Below are positions 33,981 to 38,163 of a stretch of DNA of 64,000 nt, piece after piece. This stretch comes from Escherichia coli (GTDB taxonomy: Bacteria > Pseudomonadota > Gammaproteobacteria > Enterobacterales > Enterobacteriaceae). The stretch lies in the NCBI RefSeq assembly GCF_002854065.1, contig NZ_CP024153.1. One strand, given 5' to 3'. Under the pieces are notes generated by a model. It searched no databases, was not told the origin of the DNA, and saw only the letters and a list, made by a program, of their open reading frames with translations. Position 1 is the first letter of the stretch; each line of letters begins with the position of its first letter. The position numbers and the translations under genes were made by a program.

Positions 33981-34800
33981 GGCACTGTTGCAAATAGTCG
34001 GTGGTGATAAACTTATCATCCCCTTTTGCTGATGGAGCTGCACATGAACCCATTCAAAGGCCGGCATTTTCAGCGTGACATCATTCTGTGGGCCGTACGC
34101 TGGTACTGCAAATACGGCATCAGTTACCGTGAGCTGCAGGAGATGCTGGCTGAACGCGGAGTGAATGTCGATCACTCCACGATTTACCGCTGGGTTCAGC
34201 GTTATGCGCCTGAAATGGAAAAACGGCTGCGCTGGTACTGGCGTAACCCTTCCGATCTTTGCCCGTGGCACATGGATGAAACCTACGTGAAGGTCAATGG
34301 CCGCTGGGCGTATCTGTACCGGGCCGTCGACAGCCGGGGCCGCACTGTCGATTTTTATCTCTCCTCCCGTCGTAACAGCAAAGCTGCATACCGGTTTCTG
34401 GGTAAAATCCTCAACAACGTGAAGAAGTGGCAGATCCCGCGATTCATCAACACGGATAAAGCGCCCGCCTATGGTCGCGCGCTTGCTCTGCTCAAACGCG
34501 AAGGCCGGTGCCCGTCTGACGTTGAACACCGACAGATTAAGTACCGGAACAACGTGATTGAATGCGATCATGGCAAACTGAAACGGATAATCGGCGCCAC
34601 GCTGGGATTTAAATCCATGAAGACGGCTTACGCCACCATCAAAGGTATTGAGGTGATGCGTGCACTACGCAAAGGCCAGGCCTCAGCATTTTATTATGGT
34701 GATCCCCTGGGCGAAATGCGCCTGGTAAGCAGAGTTTTTGAAATGTAAGGCCTTTGAATAAGACAAAAGGCTGCCTCATCGCTAACTTTGCAACAGTGCC
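33981..34800 (+). mobile_element. IS26 copy B
   Basis: 820 bp; tnp26 34044-34748 (G184). Confidence 0.95.
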
Positions 34801-35254
34801 ATTTTTCCCGATTCGACTTATTCGGGCGCTCCCCTGGCTCAAATGTGATTTCTCCATCCTCAACAGAGATCCCAGCCAGCCCCATGATAGAAAGATCCCC
34901 GGCCATTTCATCGGTGGTGCCGTTGGCGATTGCTGCCATCAGCTTTTCACGACTGGGGAAGCGATCCATCCAACTGATCCGATAGTCATCCGTCATCAGG
35001 CTTTCATATGCTTCCAAGAAGCGCCCGCCCTCAATGGCATAATCCGCCATCTTGTCGCCGGTTCGTGCTCCACCAGGTGCGCCGGTGCTGCTTGGCATTA
35101 GTCCGATAGCTTCCATGAAGTCGGCCCATTCCTTGTTGTGATAGCCACGCCGCCCAGGCTTGCCGAAATGGTGCTGCCATAGGTGGCACATTTCGTGGCA
35201 AAGCGTTTGCATAATTTCTTCGGGGGGGCATACGGCGAAGTAAGCCGGATTCAT
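34801..35254 (-). pseudogene. SprT-like zinc metalloprotease-domain protein, 3'-truncated by IS26
   Basis: MNPAYFAVCPPEEIMQTLCHEMCHLWQHH... HExxH; ORF runs into the IS26 right end without a stop. Confidence 0.6.
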
Positions 35255-35636
35255 GGCGATTTCGTCCGTCCGGGTTCCTTGGGAGTTAACGAACCTCTCC
35301 GGGCTGAAATAGCCATAGGTTTGTTTTTCTCGTTGGAGGTGTAGGAGAGGAATAAAGTTTCATACTAAGCAGTCAAGTAACCCTGTTTGTACCGTTCTAA
35401 ATGATACTCACCCAGAAATAAAGATTCATACTAATTCCTACTACAAAATCTGAGTCACGCTACAACTGAGTAATAAAGTATCATACTGGTTGTCTTGAGC
35501 ATCCACAGATTGATTGGCCCCATTCAAACACGTTTCTGGACAAGAATGAGCTAGAAGTATTGATCTAGCTCTGGTGATTTGAATTAGAAAATGTATTAAT
35601 GTTGTGTATAGTTTATCAGCAGGTATTCGTAAGCAT

Positions 35637-36293
35637 CTAGTCAGGAAAAACAACAATACCCAACGCTTCGAGAAGCTGTTCTTGTTGCCAGCTGGCAATT
35701 TTGATACCTGATGTATCGACTTTTCGAGGATCTAAACCGTCGAGTTCGGCGTGACATAAATTAGCACCCTGTAGGCTAAACTGTCCCCAGACATCTTCAG
35801 AAAAAACACCTCGACTTAAGTCTGACTCTTTCAGTGATGCGCCCGCGAGGTGAGTCCCTATCCAGCGATTTTCAAACAGCTCACATTTTTCTAAACAGAC
35901 CCGCTCCATATTGGCATAAGACAGGTTACATCCAGTAATAAAGGCTGAGCAAAAGTACATACGATTACTCACTTGATTGGCAAAGTTTGCTCGGGAAAAG
36001 TTGGCCCCTTTTAAATCACACTCACGTAACTCAATACCGTAGCAATTGGCGTTACTAAAGTTTGCCATCGCAAGCTGGCATTGTTGGAAACTTGCATCGC
36101 GAAGGTCTGCGACATCAAAATGGCAACCTTCGATATCACCCTGTTCAATGAACTTGCAGTTAATAAATGTCGCATCACGCAAGTTAGCACGTCGAAAATC
36201 GCATCGGATAAAGGTGCAAGCAGTGAAAGTAATATCACTTAGATCTTGATGTGAAAAACTGTGGTGTCGATATGTGTGACGGTAGGTTTCCAT
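35637..36293 (-). CDS. qnrS: QnrS-family pentapeptide-repeat quinolone-resistance protein
   Basis: 218 aa METYRHTYRHHSFSHQDLSDITFTACTFIRCDFRRANLRD...; pentapeptide repeats; allele not determined. Confidence 0.9.
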   Translation of the reverse strand: METYRHTYRHHSFSHQDLSDITFTACTFIRCDFRRANLRDATFINCKFIEQGDIEGCHFDVADLRDASFQQCQLAMANFSNANCYGIELRECDLKGANFSRANFANQVSNRMYFCSAFITGCNLSYANMERVCLEKCELFENRWIGTHLAGASLKESDLSRGVFSEDVWGQFSLQGANLCHAELDGLDPRKVDTSGIKIASWQQEQLLEALGIVVFPD

Positions 36294-36460
36294 GTTGACT
36301 CCTATGATGAACTGGACGCAACACTACCATCAAAGCCACATCACATCACCAAAATAAAAACACTAAAAATCAAGATCTTAAAAACCCTCATTTTGCCTAT
36401 TTTAAGGGGGTAAAATAGCGCCCTGAGCCTCTATGTTAACGTTCAAAGTACGCGGCACCA

Positions 36461-37093
36461 TTGAAAAAAGTTATCCGCTTAAAAAGCCACAGAGAAAAGG
36501 AACCCAATAGATTACTGATGTCCGCCATGTTGGTTTCATCTAGTGCCCTGCTCCGTGTATTGGATTGCACAATCTATAACCATTATGCGGCAGCCTTTTG
36601 GATTGCACAATCCAAAGTTAGGGGAAGCCGACGAGCCAGGGAGCCCCGCGACCTGGTGAGCCTGGCCGAAGGCCAAAAGCCACTGCAAAACCGAAAAATT
36701 TCGTACGTACGAAAAAACATGGGGGGGTTAGAACTAGGGCAGGAAGAAGGTACATTACATAAATTAGCAAGTAGGTTAGGAATTTCATATCCCACCGCCG
36801 TTAGTTGGACTACCGACATAGGAATAAAGCTAAATCGGCAAGGCTATAATAGCCCCTCTCACGACTTTACAAATCTACAATGCCGCCATGCCAGGGAATT
36901 TCTAAAAATGACCAGGGATGATTTCTGCTCGTTATCCAAAGTAAGCAAAACAGCTCTAAGGGAATTTGAATTAGGGAAGGCCAATATCAGGAGAGAGACG
37001 GCTAATAAAATATTGGCCGCTTTTGAGGTGATGGGGATCAGGTTCAATGCTGATGGCACCTTTTCACATGGCCAAAGCACCCCCCGCGATTGA
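36461..37093 (+). CDS. Hypothetical HTH-type protein
   Basis: 210-aa ORF; C-terminal LSKVSKTALREFELGKANIRRETANKILAAFEVMGIRF resembles an XRE-type HTH; true start uncertain. Confidence 0.35.
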   Translation: MKKVIRLKSHREKEPNRLLMSAMLVSSSALLRVLDCTIYNHYAAAFWIAQSKVRGSRRAREPRDLVSLAEGQKPLQNRKISYVRKNMGGLELGQEEGTLHKLASRLGISYPTAVSWTTDIGIKLNRQGYNSPSHDFTNLQCRHAREFLKMTRDDFCSLSKVSKTALREFELGKANIRRETANKILAAFEVMGIRFNADGTFSHGQSTPRD

Positions 37094-37159
37094 CTGCGCA
37101 ACCTGCTTTTTTATGTTAAATGGCAGTGCGAGAAGTGAGCTATGATGCGGCTTTCAGCT

Positions 37160-37343
37160 AGGTATCAGATGGCGACAATCTCGCCAATGCTGCGTTTAAA
37201 GTCGGCCTAGACACACCAAAGTGTTTTGCAACTTCAGCTTTCGTTATCTCTACATCCGACAGCATGGCCCTTGCCTTCCTGGCGTCTTCATCTGACATGG
37301 CCAAGGGTCGCCCACCGCGTCGCCCTCTTGCCCTTGCTGCCTC
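37160..37343 (-). pseudogene. tnpR: Serine recombinase (resolvase) C-terminal fragment, truncated by IS26
   Basis: ...GRRGGRPLAMSDEDARKARAMLSDVEITKAEVAKHFGVSRPTLNAALARL* (C-terminal HTH of a resolvase). Confidence 0.6.
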
Positions 37344-38163
37344 GGCACTGTTGCAAATAGTCGGTGGTGATAAACTTATCATCCCCTTTTGCTGATGGAG
37401 CTGCACATGAACCCATTCAAAGGCCGGCATTTTCAGCGTGACATCATTCTGTGGGCCGTACGCTGGTACTGCAAATACGGCATCAGTTACCGTGAGCTGC
37501 AGGAGATGCTGGCTGAACGCGGAGTGAATGTCGATCACTCCACGATTTACCGCTGGGTTCAGCGTTATGCGCCTGAAATGGAAAAACGGCTGCGCTGGTA
37601 CTGGCGTAACCCTTCCGATCTTTGCCCGTGGCACATGGATGAAACCTACGTGAAGGTCAATGGCCGCTGGGCGTATCTGTACCGGGCCGTCGACAGCCGG
37701 GGCCGCACTGTCGATTTTTATCTCTCCTCCCGTCGTAACAGCAAAGCTGCATACCGGTTTCTGGGTAAAATCCTCAACAACGTGAAGAAGTGGCAGATCC
37801 CGCGATTCATCAACACGGATAAAGCGCCCGCCTATGGTCGCGCGCTTGCTCTGCTCAAACGCGAAGGCCGGTGCCCGTCTGACGTTGAACACCGACAGAT
37901 TAAGTACCGGAACAACGTGATTGAATGCGATCATGGCAAACTGAAACGGATAATCGGCGCCACGCTGGGATTTAAATCCATGAAGACGGCTTACGCCACC
38001 ATCAAAGGTATTGAGGTGATGCGTGCACTACGCAAAGGCCAGGCCTCAGCATTTTATTATGGTGATCCCCTGGGCGAAATGCGCCTGGTAAGCAGAGTTT
38101 TTGAAATGTAAGGCCTTTGAATAAGACAAAAGGCTGCCTCATCGCTAACTTTGCAACAGTGCC
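37344..38163 (+). mobile_element. IS26 copy C
   Basis: 820 bp; tnp26 37407-38111 (G184). Confidence 0.95.

Follow-up and report, generated by a model that had tools for sequence, protein, structure and literature searches.

An IS26-bounded qnrS2 segment and its nested relatives in an Escherichia coli multiresistance region

Two identical IS26 copies bracket a 2543-bp segment

The window, the 64-kb stretch of Escherichia coli DNA analysed here, contains seven copies of IS26. Two of them, copy B (33981-34800) and copy C (37344-38163), both lie on the plus strand and are separated by 2543 bp, in agreement with the sequence-only reading, which had described a pair in the same orientation around a 2.5-kb segment. 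Each copy is 820 bp long, and the two are 100% identical over 820 bp, with zero mismatches; the distance from the start of B to the start of C is 3363 bp (820 + 2543). Both 14-bp terminal inverted repeats, perfect copies of GGCACTGTTGCAAA, are present in each, and each encodes an intact Tnp26 of 234 residues, a single DDE transposase (tnp26 of copy B at 34044-34748; G184). Tnp26 matches the IS6 family transposase profile NF033587 at 275.6 bits (cut-off 125) and DDE_Tnp_IS240 (PF13610, E = 2.4e-48). Length, GGCACTGTTGCAAA repeats and intact transposase together identify copies B and C as IS26.

Copy A (17679-18498), copy D (42769-43588) and a fifth direct copy (59458-60277) have the same orientation as B and C, and two further copies are inverted (52602-53421 and 47649-48470). 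The copy at 47649-48470 contains two single-base insertions, possibly sequencing errors. The direct pairs A/B and C/D, proposed earlier to surround a sul3-to-Tn1721 block and the left integron, were both recovered: the DNA between A and B stretches from the mef(B)/sul3 region to Tn1721 tet(A), and that between C and D comprises Δsul1-qacEΔ1-arr-3-catB3-blaOXA-1-aac(6')-Ib-cr.

On the left outer side, IS26 B cuts a Tn1721/TnAs1-type tnpA, of which the 3' part is left (32464-33980, minus strand), and the junction reads GTCGAAGT followed by IS26. On the right, IS26 C cuts sul1 after its first 82 codons (38164-38409, minus strand), with IS26 followed by GTCGATTG, and beyond Δsul1 the genes qacEΔ1-arr-3-catB3-blaOXA-1-aac(6')-Ib-cr extend up to copy D. 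The structure from B to C is not surrounded by an 8-bp target duplication, its left flank being GTCGAAGT and its right flank GTCGATTG. Comparison of the 8-bp sequences flanking each of the seven IS26 copies, directly and as reverse complements, gave no matching pair, and histories of simple transposition and of single-step inversion were therefore dropped. An apparent 13-bp extension of the inverted-repeat pair beyond copy B was rejected as an extension artefact, since the flanks differ.

Genes of the segment

The sequence-only reading had listed a SprT-like fragment, qnrS, a helix-turn-helix (HTH) ORF and a resolvase remnant. All four are present, and the allele can now be specified as qnrS2, not qnrS1. 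Next to IS26 B lies ΔmpR (34801-35339, minus strand), a truncated SprT-like zinc metalloprotease gene that matches the Pfam SprT-like profile only at positions 49-98 of 108. Relative to plasmid pSE5419-3, IS26 B has removed 95 bp from the 3' end of mpR, and the 5' part was split off by insertion of the mobile insertion cassette mic. The qnrS2 gene (35637-36293, minus strand) encodes a pentapeptide-repeat quinolone resistance protein of 218 residues, assigned by profile (QnrS, NF000056, 510.4 bits versus a cut-off of 460) and by DNA showing 100% identity with records that bear the annotation QnrS2 (WP_012537714.1; AMRFinderPlus identity 100%). A putative qnrS2 promoter at 36468-36496 (minus strand; -35 TTCTCT, 17-bp spacer, -10 TAACTT) was located inside the truncated mic using published motifs (PMC2600179). 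A promoter and terminator consensus scan of the segment returned no more sites than shuffled sequence. As qnrS2 retains its own putative promoter, its expression is probably independent of the flanks.

The fragment at 36529-36740, with no strand assigned, is IncU backbone that corresponds to positions 4501-4717 of pSE5419-3 and lies between two internal deletions. It carries the palindrome TTGGATTGCACAATCCAA and a second TTGGATTGCACAATC, at 36560-36615. The HTH ORF (36656-37093, plus strand; XRE/HTH_3-type) is an IncU backbone gene whose 5' end has been replaced because of the 505-bp deletion described below. The segment ends at IS26 C with the resolvase remnant (37158-37343, minus strand), the last 61 codons and stop of an IncU 'recombinase family protein'. 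These 61 C-terminal residues retain the HTH_7 domain alone, and the catalytic domain is absent.

An IncU fragment with a truncated mic cassette

The truncated cassette mic-qnrS2 (35340-36528, minus strand) retains 1189 bp of the full 1370 bp. It has a single 22-bp inverted repeat, TGTAGGAGAGGAATAAAGTTTC, at 35340-35361, and of the 5-bp CCTCC target duplication that belongs to mic, one copy survives as the adjacent GGAGG (35335-35339). A fuzzy search of the window found neither a second 22-bp repeat nor a second GGAGG, so that the paired repeats and duplication of an entire cassette are represented by one of each. A 22-nt repeat pair at 35315-35336 and 36487-36508 was considered as the cassette ends and rejected as a chance match. 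The IncU plasmid pSE5419-3 (L003) contains a complete mic at 3044-4413, with 22-bp inverted repeats that have 4 mismatches and GGAGG on both sides, matching the published anatomy of mic-qnrS2 (22-bp inverted repeats with 4 mismatches, CCTCC duplication; PMC2600179).

The 2543-bp segment aligns to pSE5419-3 in three collinear pieces at 99.5-100% identity, separated by deletions of 268 bp (36528/36529) and 505 bp (36740/36741). The first of these took the far end of mic, including its inverted repeat. The alignment shows, at the level of DNA comparison, that the passenger is an IncU (Aeromonas-type) backbone fragment in which qnrS2 had entered mpR on the 1.37-kb mic. The IncU plasmids p37/pAS37, pAC3, pP2G1 and pSE5419-3 (Cattoir et al. 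2008, PMC2600179; Kim et al. 2017, PMC5444012) represent this source context, with an mpR split by mic. Features common to them and the window are the qnrS2 promoter, the GGAGG/CCTCC duplication, one 22-bp inverted repeat and the order of HTH gene then resolvase; they differ in having no IS26 and a complete cassette, and in containing the 268 and 505 bp that the window lacks. Both internal deletions are common to all IS26-associated copies, which points to a single capture lineage.

One fixed junction and a nested series of opposite boundaries

The IS26-mpR junction is identical in every enterobacterial qnrS2 record examined. The other boundary of the IS26-bounded qnrS2 segments is nested, giving lengths of 2796, 2583, 2543, 2396, 2157, 1986, 1950 and 1724 bp. 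The outer Δsul1 flank is identical in four of these forms, namely those of pEF04 (2583 bp), the window (2543 bp), pSa64T-188 (1986 bp) and pRJ749 (1950 bp). Plasmid pSa64T-188 is collinear with window positions 26943-36786 and 37344-41886, so that both outer flanks are shared and only 557 bp beside IS26 C differ; pEF04 is collinear with the window on the right side for 6 kb, with a 40-bp difference beside IS26 C. On this comparison of boundaries, the constant junction with a nested opposite boundary bears the mark of IS26 having deleted adjacent DNA again and again. The order of the deletions is a parsimony reading, and some lengths could be independent or could have been reshuffled by homologous recombination in IS26 or in the segment.

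The IS26-qnrS2-IS26 structure itself is already known, having been published for pRJ749 in 2020 (Tao et al. 2020, PMC7158099). The window shares its IS26-ΔmpR junction with pRJ749 (E. coli RJ749, IncHI2/IncN; PMC7158099), pSa64T-188 and the S. Derby Sa64 chromosome (PMC7530939). Also common to all of these are the truncated mic with qnrS2 (100% identity over the shared part), both internal deletions, the direct IS26 orientation and the right flank IS26-Δsul1-qacEΔ1-arr-3-catB3-blaOXA-1-aac(6')-Ib-cr, and pSa64T-188 has the Tn1721 ΔtnpA left flank of the window as well. The passengers of the two plasmids are 1950 bp (pRJ749) and 1986 bp (pSa64T-188), whereas the 2543-bp passenger of the window retains the HTH ORF in full and 186 bp from the resolvase gene. 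The longest IS26-bounded forms, in pEF04/pEF05-type plasmids (E. fergusonii EFCF056) and pPK5074-91kb (E. coli PK5074), are 99.9-100% identical to the window over 2543 bp; beside the right IS26 their resolvase gene extends further than in the window, by 40 bp in pEF04 and by 253 bp in pPK5074. The right flank of pEF04 and the left flank of pPK5074 are those of the window, whereas the other outer flank of each differs.

The Δres-IS26 junction as one piece was absent from 72,556 plasmids and 5,426 complete E. coli genomes, where every match came in two pieces with an additional 40 or 253 bp, and the exact length of 2543 bp occurs in the window only among the collections searched. The window form is slightly longer than the published forms, and this exact resolvase-IS26 junction is all that is unsampled in those collections. 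There is about an even chance that the window represents an unsampled early intermediate, in which the 2543-bp form sits in the Tn1721ΔtnpA/Δsul1 flanks of the widespread 1986-bp Salmonella/E. coli form. If so, the short forms arose in place as IS26 deleted neighbouring DNA step by step (from 2583 to 2543 and on to 1986 or 1950 bp), and the series would be a natural ordered record of one IS26 copy eroding its passenger. A listing of end-point spread across records was swamped by qnrS1 matches and was uninformative. Of the two outer flanks of the window, the 1950-bp form has Δsul1 alone.

The unit recurs behind different flanks

The Tn1721ΔtnpA-IS26 junction on the left is also found in pPK5074 and pSa64T-188, and in at least 96 plasmids this junction is followed by something other than the qnrS2 unit. 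Plasmid pHS13-1-IncHI2 has both the aac(6')-Ib-cr integron module and the qnrS2 module after the identical Tn1721ΔtnpA-IS26 junction, but with their order exchanged. The IS26-ΔmpR-qnrS2 junction adjoins Tn1721 ΔtnpA in pSa64T-188 and pPK5074 as it does in the window, and other DNA in pEF04, pRJ749, p2_BE2-5 and W444. The unit with its constant IS26-ΔmpR junction thus occurs with at least five different outer flanks and with swapped module order, and its hosts comprise IncF, IncHI2, IncX1, IncR and IncI plasmids as well as chromosomes. The differing outer flanks of the unit and its varying position relative to the integron module show that, across the plasmids compared, it acts as a module. No plasmid record covering the whole array of the window end to end was found.

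A probable pseudo-compound transposon and potential translocatable unit

A pseudo-compound transposon (PCT) is recognized by a direct IS26 pair around a passenger and by the recurrence of the IS-passenger-IS structure in more than one sequence context, and both were observed here. The region is very probably an IS26-bounded PCT with qnrS2, set in an array of overlapping IS26 modules on an IncF-type multiresistance plasmid. One IS26 together with the 2543-bp segment would form a potential translocatable unit (TU) of 3363 bp. The earlier suggestion that this is the arrangement expected of an IS26 TU gains support from the direct IS26 pair and from modular recurrence in differing contexts. The TU/PCT mechanism of IS26 has been described (PMC8722046). 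In the work cited there, Tn4352/Tn6010-type PCTs (aphA1, oqxAB) and IS26 TUs (Harmer, Moran & Hall 2014; Harmer, Pong & Hall 2020) likewise have a direct IS26 pair around a resistance gene, require no target duplication and move as a one-IS circle that targets another IS26, to which the window unit may be likened. The Tn4352/Tn6010-type structures in that work differ in their passenger and in that their activity was tested experimentally, whereas the window unit is known from sequence alone.

By sequence comparison, the history begins with qnrS2 entering mpR of an IncU backbone on the 1.37-kb mic. One IS26 cut mpR, this junction being fixed in all enterobacterial copies examined, and the fragment then lost 268 bp, including the second mic inverted repeat, and 505 bp internally. 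Later, as the nested junctions suggest, the right-hand IS26 would have repeatedly deleted leftward DNA while the outer Δsul1 flank stayed constant. Following established IS26 biology, release of a 3363-bp circle could result from recombination between the identical 820-bp copies or, rarely, from Tnp26 copy-in adjacent deletion. Tnp26 would place this circle beside any other IS26 in a targeted conservative reaction without target duplication. Reinsertion beside the unit itself would give amplification, and recombination alone would give deletion.

The lack of 8-bp duplications and the 'unoccupied' Tn1721ΔtnpA-IS26 junction in at least 96 plasmids fit TU incorporation, and RecA-dependent recombination leaves the same product. 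The mosaic of outer flanks, in which the window combines the left flank of pPK5074 with the right flank of pEF04, can be accounted for just as well by plain RecA recombination of one IS26 copy with another. Alternatively, the structure could be a static scar of old cointegrate and deletion events, with RecA recombination between dispersed IS26 generating the variation and the unit never moving as a TU. The absence of target duplications throughout the array, the way in which the outer flanks are mixed between the window, pPK5074 and pEF04, and the stable quinolone phenotype of pRJ749 over five subcultures (PMC7158099) all agree with such a scar. It is nevertheless improbable, as nested boundaries at an IS26 end need transposase activity (adjacent deletion) and not homologous recombination alone, the unit stands behind unrelated flanks in plasmids of five Inc types and in chromosomes, and tnp26 is intact in both copies.

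Misjoining of contigs across the 820-bp IS26 repeats might be suspected in a window with seven IS26 in 64 kb, two possible sequencing errors in one of them and a Δres-IS26 junction present in no other record searched. Such an artefact is very unlikely, since the independently sequenced pSa64T-188 has the same order and both outer flanks, pEF04 is collinear over 6 kb on the right side, and misjoining at repeats cannot make a unique junction inside a unique segment. A classical compound transposon, moving whole by the outer ends of both IS26, would also have its resistance gene flanked by an IS on either side; it is refuted for this copy by the differing 8-bp flanks (GTCGAAGT versus GTCGATTG), and has almost no probability given that IS26 reactions yield cointegrates only (PMC8722046) and that the outer flanks, Tn1721 tnpA and sul1, are not contiguous in one target. 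Movement of qnrS2 by its own mic, with IS26 incidental, recalls its entry into IncU plasmids on a cassette with 22-bp inverted repeats and a 5-bp duplication (PMC2600179), and is just as implausible for a cassette that encodes no transposase, has lost 181 bp of its end with the second inverted repeat, and lacks the second GGAGG.

Significance of the IS26-bounded qnrS2 module

With the far mic inverted repeat lost, IS26 is likely the only remaining route of movement for qnrS2, and cassette-based mobility has been replaced by IS26-based mobility. For surveillance, qnrS2, normally a gene of Aeromonas/IncU or IncQ, is here locked in an IS26 array with aac(6')-Ib-cr and oqxAB. In such an array, all three of these determinants of plasmid-mediated quinolone resistance could thus be rearranged, be lost, increase in copy number or move to any IS26-bearing replicon. 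The qnrS2 unit of the window brings no new mechanism and no new question, and the comparative series offers a clear natural example of IS26 adjacent deletion, with one fixed junction, a ladder of eroded junctions and a constant outer flank.

Circles from such structures are expected mainly from RecA-dependent recombination between IS26 copies and not from Tnp26 excision (PMC8722046). IS26-qnrS2 circles have been detected by inverse PCR in E. coli RJ749, whose pRJ749 carries the shorter 1950-bp relative (PMC7158099). Since circles in recA+ clinical strains may come from homologous recombination or PCR template switching, they are no proof of Tnp26-driven movement. The window contains one copy of the qnrS2 unit. 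For another shorter form, E. coli 19M19 carries a chromosomal duplication of the qnrS2 region (bioRxiv 10.1101/2024.04.24.590863).

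Structure of the IS26-bounded qnrS2 unit

The window contains seven IS26 copies, five on the plus strand (A, 17679-18498; B, 33981-34800; C, 37344-38163; D, 42769-43588; F, 59458-60277) and two on the minus strand (E, 52602-53421; G, 47649-48470). Copies A to D are 820 bp each and share 100% identity, and both B and C carry 14-bp terminal repeats at both ends and an intact 234-aa Tnp26. The sequence-only reading placed a qnrS segment between directly oriented copies around about 2.5 kb at 33981-38163. These limits are exact, from the start of B to the end of C, and B and C, both on the plus strand, enclose 2543 bp (34801-37343) with a start-to-start distance of 3363 bp. 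The passenger genes it listed are likewise all present. The SprT-like fragment matches positions 49-98 only of the 108-position Pfam profile, and thus lacks its N-terminal part. The QnrS-family gene scores 510 bits (cut-off 460) and is accompanied by an HTH_3 ORF and a resolvase remnant consisting of the last 61 codons, with HTH_7 as the sole domain left. The qnrS allele is qnrS2 rather than qnrS1: its DNA matches QnrS2-annotated records at 100% identity, against only about 85% for qnrS1 records.

A module with a ladder of passenger lengths

On its left, the unit adjoins the 3' portion of a Tn1721-type tnpA; on its right stand the first 82 sul1 codons and then qacEΔ1-arr-3-catB3-blaOXA-1-aac(6')-Ib-cr. 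We searched with a query that joined the two outer flanks through a single IS26. At least 96 plasmids share the Tn1721ΔtnpA-IS26 junction of the window and continue directly into the 3'-conserved segment, which is 990 bp longer in these plasmids and includes a complete sul1. Behind the same junction, pHS13-1-IncHI2 carries the integron module and then the qnrS2 module, whereas the window has the reverse order. The unit is also found behind unrelated flanks in IncF, IncHI2/IncN, IncX1/IncR and IncI plasmids and in E. coli chromosomes.

The passenger's other boundary varies between records. The passenger measures 2796 bp in pPK5074-91kb, 2583 bp in pEF04, 2543 bp in the window, 2396 bp in p2_BE2-5, 2157 bp in the W444 plasmid (IS26 inverted), 1986 bp in pSa64T-188, 1950 bp in pRJ749 and many IncHI2 plasmids, and 1724 bp in pHS13-1-IncHI2 (IS26 inverted). 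The outer junction of IS26 with GTCGATTG-Δsul1 is identical in pEF04, the window, pSa64T-188 and pRJ749. Plasmid pSa64T-188 matches the window collinearly over 26943-36786 on one side and 37344-41886 on the other, and its only difference is the absence of 557 bp adjoining the left end of IS26 C, where pEF04 has 40 bp extra. Intramolecular copy-in by IS26, in its adjacent-deletion mode, is expected to leave one outer flank constant while the opposite side is progressively shortened. The constant Δsul1 flank and the shortening passenger thus suggest that the length series was made by IS26 adjacent deletions, in an order of events that we infer from the junctions. One rival remains, a static scar that RecA alone has reshuffled; it can explain the flank mosaics but not the ladder of boundaries that abut IS26. 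Misassembly of the region is unlikely because pSa64T-188 and pEF04 show the same order and flanks.

Within the series attributed to adjacent deletion, the window form can be placed as an intermediate that links the pEF04 form to the common short ones. Its resolvase-IS26 junction, as one piece, was absent from 72,556 plasmid records and 5,426 complete E. coli genomes. A report of 2020 described qnrS2 between two IS26 copies as a new context (pRJ749, PMC7158099), and further instances come from S. Derby Sa64 (PMC7530939) and environmental E. coli (bioRxiv 10.1101/2024.04.24.590863). The window contributes a length variant, a small addition to a known system.

Predicted mobility of the unit

A structure bounded by directly oriented IS26 copies is a pseudo-compound transposon, and its circular translocatable unit (TU) consists of one IS26 and the passenger (Hall 2022, PMC8722046). 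TUs form readily via homologous recombination between IS26 copies and rarely via copy-in adjacent deletion, Tnp26 incorporates them beside another IS26 in a targeted conservative reaction, and cointegrates are the end product of all IS26 reactions (PMC8722046). A 3363-bp IS26-qnrS2 circle could arise from copies B and C, and its preferred entry points would be any of the five other IS26 copies or an IS26 on another replicon. Re-entry next to the unit would lead to tandem amplification. The unit is present once in the window. Shorter relatives have yielded IS26-qnrS2 circles by inverse PCR in E. coli RJ749 (PMC7158099) and a duplicated qnrS2 region in E. coli 19M19 (bioRxiv 10.1101/2024.04.24.590863). 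For other resistance genes, IS26-mediated amplification is reported for blaTEM-1B (PMC7530762) and aphA1 (PMC9602291).

No 8-bp duplication surrounds the unit (left GTCGAAGT, right GTCGATTG), and the 14 sequences flanking the seven IS26 copies gave no match with one another, directly or as reverse complements. A classical compound transposon is ruled out by these flanks.

IncU origin of the passenger

Aligned with the IncU plasmid pSE5419-3, the passenger falls into three collinear pieces: 34801-36528, 36524-36740 and 36740-37343 of the window correspond to 2505-4232, 4501-4717 and 5223-5826 of the plasmid. In pSE5419-3, qnrS2 lies inside a 1370-bp cassette (3044-4413) that ends in 22-bp repeats (TGTAGGAGAGGAATAAAGTTTC and GAAACTTTATTCTACTCACACA) with 4 mismatches and has a GGAGG adjoining each end. 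The mobile insertion cassette (mic) of Cattoir et al., located in the mpR metalloprotease gene, has 22-bp inverted repeats with 4 mismatches and a CCTCC duplication, without a transposase (PMC2600179; also PMC5444012). The two cassettes are the same, with like repeats, mismatches and duplication.

Of these features, the window retains a single mic repeat (35340-35361) and a single GGAGG (35335-35339). The cassette's last 181 bp, the second repeat and the second GGAGG were lost in a 268-bp deletion at 36528/36529, so the cassette is no longer mobile by its own ends; cassette-borne mobility of qnrS2 is ruled out by the missing repeat. A further 505 bp are missing at 36740/36741, where two small IncU ORFs and the beginning of the HTH gene were lost. 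The promoter described for qnrS2 (TTCTCT, 17 bp, TAACTT) is retained on the minus strand (36468-36496), so qnrS2 is predicted to remain expressed from its own signals. Every enterobacterial qnrS2 record examined has the same first passenger base adjoining IS26 and contains both internal deletions, with single-piece alignments at 100% identity across them, which argues for one capture lineage of the enterobacterial IS26-qnrS2 passengers.

Downstream of qnrS2, at 35348-35489, a sequence of about 21 bp (AGGAATAAAGTTTCATACTAA and variants) occurs three times in direct orientation, with spacings of 66 and 55 bp, starting inside the remaining mic inverted repeat. The complete pSE5419-3 cassette has another set of similar repeats at its other end; all these repeats may be transposase-binding subterminal repeats of mic. 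Upstream of the split mpR gene, the IncU backbone fragment carries TTGGATTGCACAATCCAA, a perfect palindrome, and 38 bp from it another copy of TTGGATTGCACAATC (36560-36615); the two look like a putative repressor operator pair. In pHS13-1-IncHI2, the inverted IS26 borders the qnrS2 segment at a point that corresponds to window position 36524, only 4 bp from the window's 268-bp deletion junction; this may be a coincidence or a local hotspot.

The wider IS26 array

Copies E and F are IS26-v1 (PMC9412624), differing from A to D by three nucleotide changes (459, 613, 614) that give Tnp26 G184N. Two IS26 variants thus coexist in one array. E and F bracket a stabilisation-gene/IS91/aph(3')-IIa block, and F abuts oqxR-oqxAB. 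Copy G is v1-type and 822 bp long, with single-base insertions at IS26 positions 455 and 515 that shift the tnp26 reading frame. Either the copy is inactivated or the insertions are errors of sequencing or assembly.

The array unites a PMQR trio, qnrS2 (35637-36293), aac(6')-Ib-cr (41241-41795) and oqxAB (from about 60.4 kb). Plasmid pRJ749 is reported to carry these three as well, whereas the window has them on an IncF-type backbone (repE/repA, pemIK, Tn21-type mer upstream). The right end of IS26 is duplicated over 40 bp (43589-43628) directly after copy D. Around D, a 649-bp perfect inverted repeat (41947-42595 and 43629-44277) corresponds to the integron 5'-conserved segment; two class 1 integrons thus stand head to head, both with truncated intI1. 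Finally, an isolated IS26 end fragment at 55184 and a 1610-bp perfect inverted repeat (1-1610 and 55323-56932) indicate probable further large IS-mediated rearrangements in the array.
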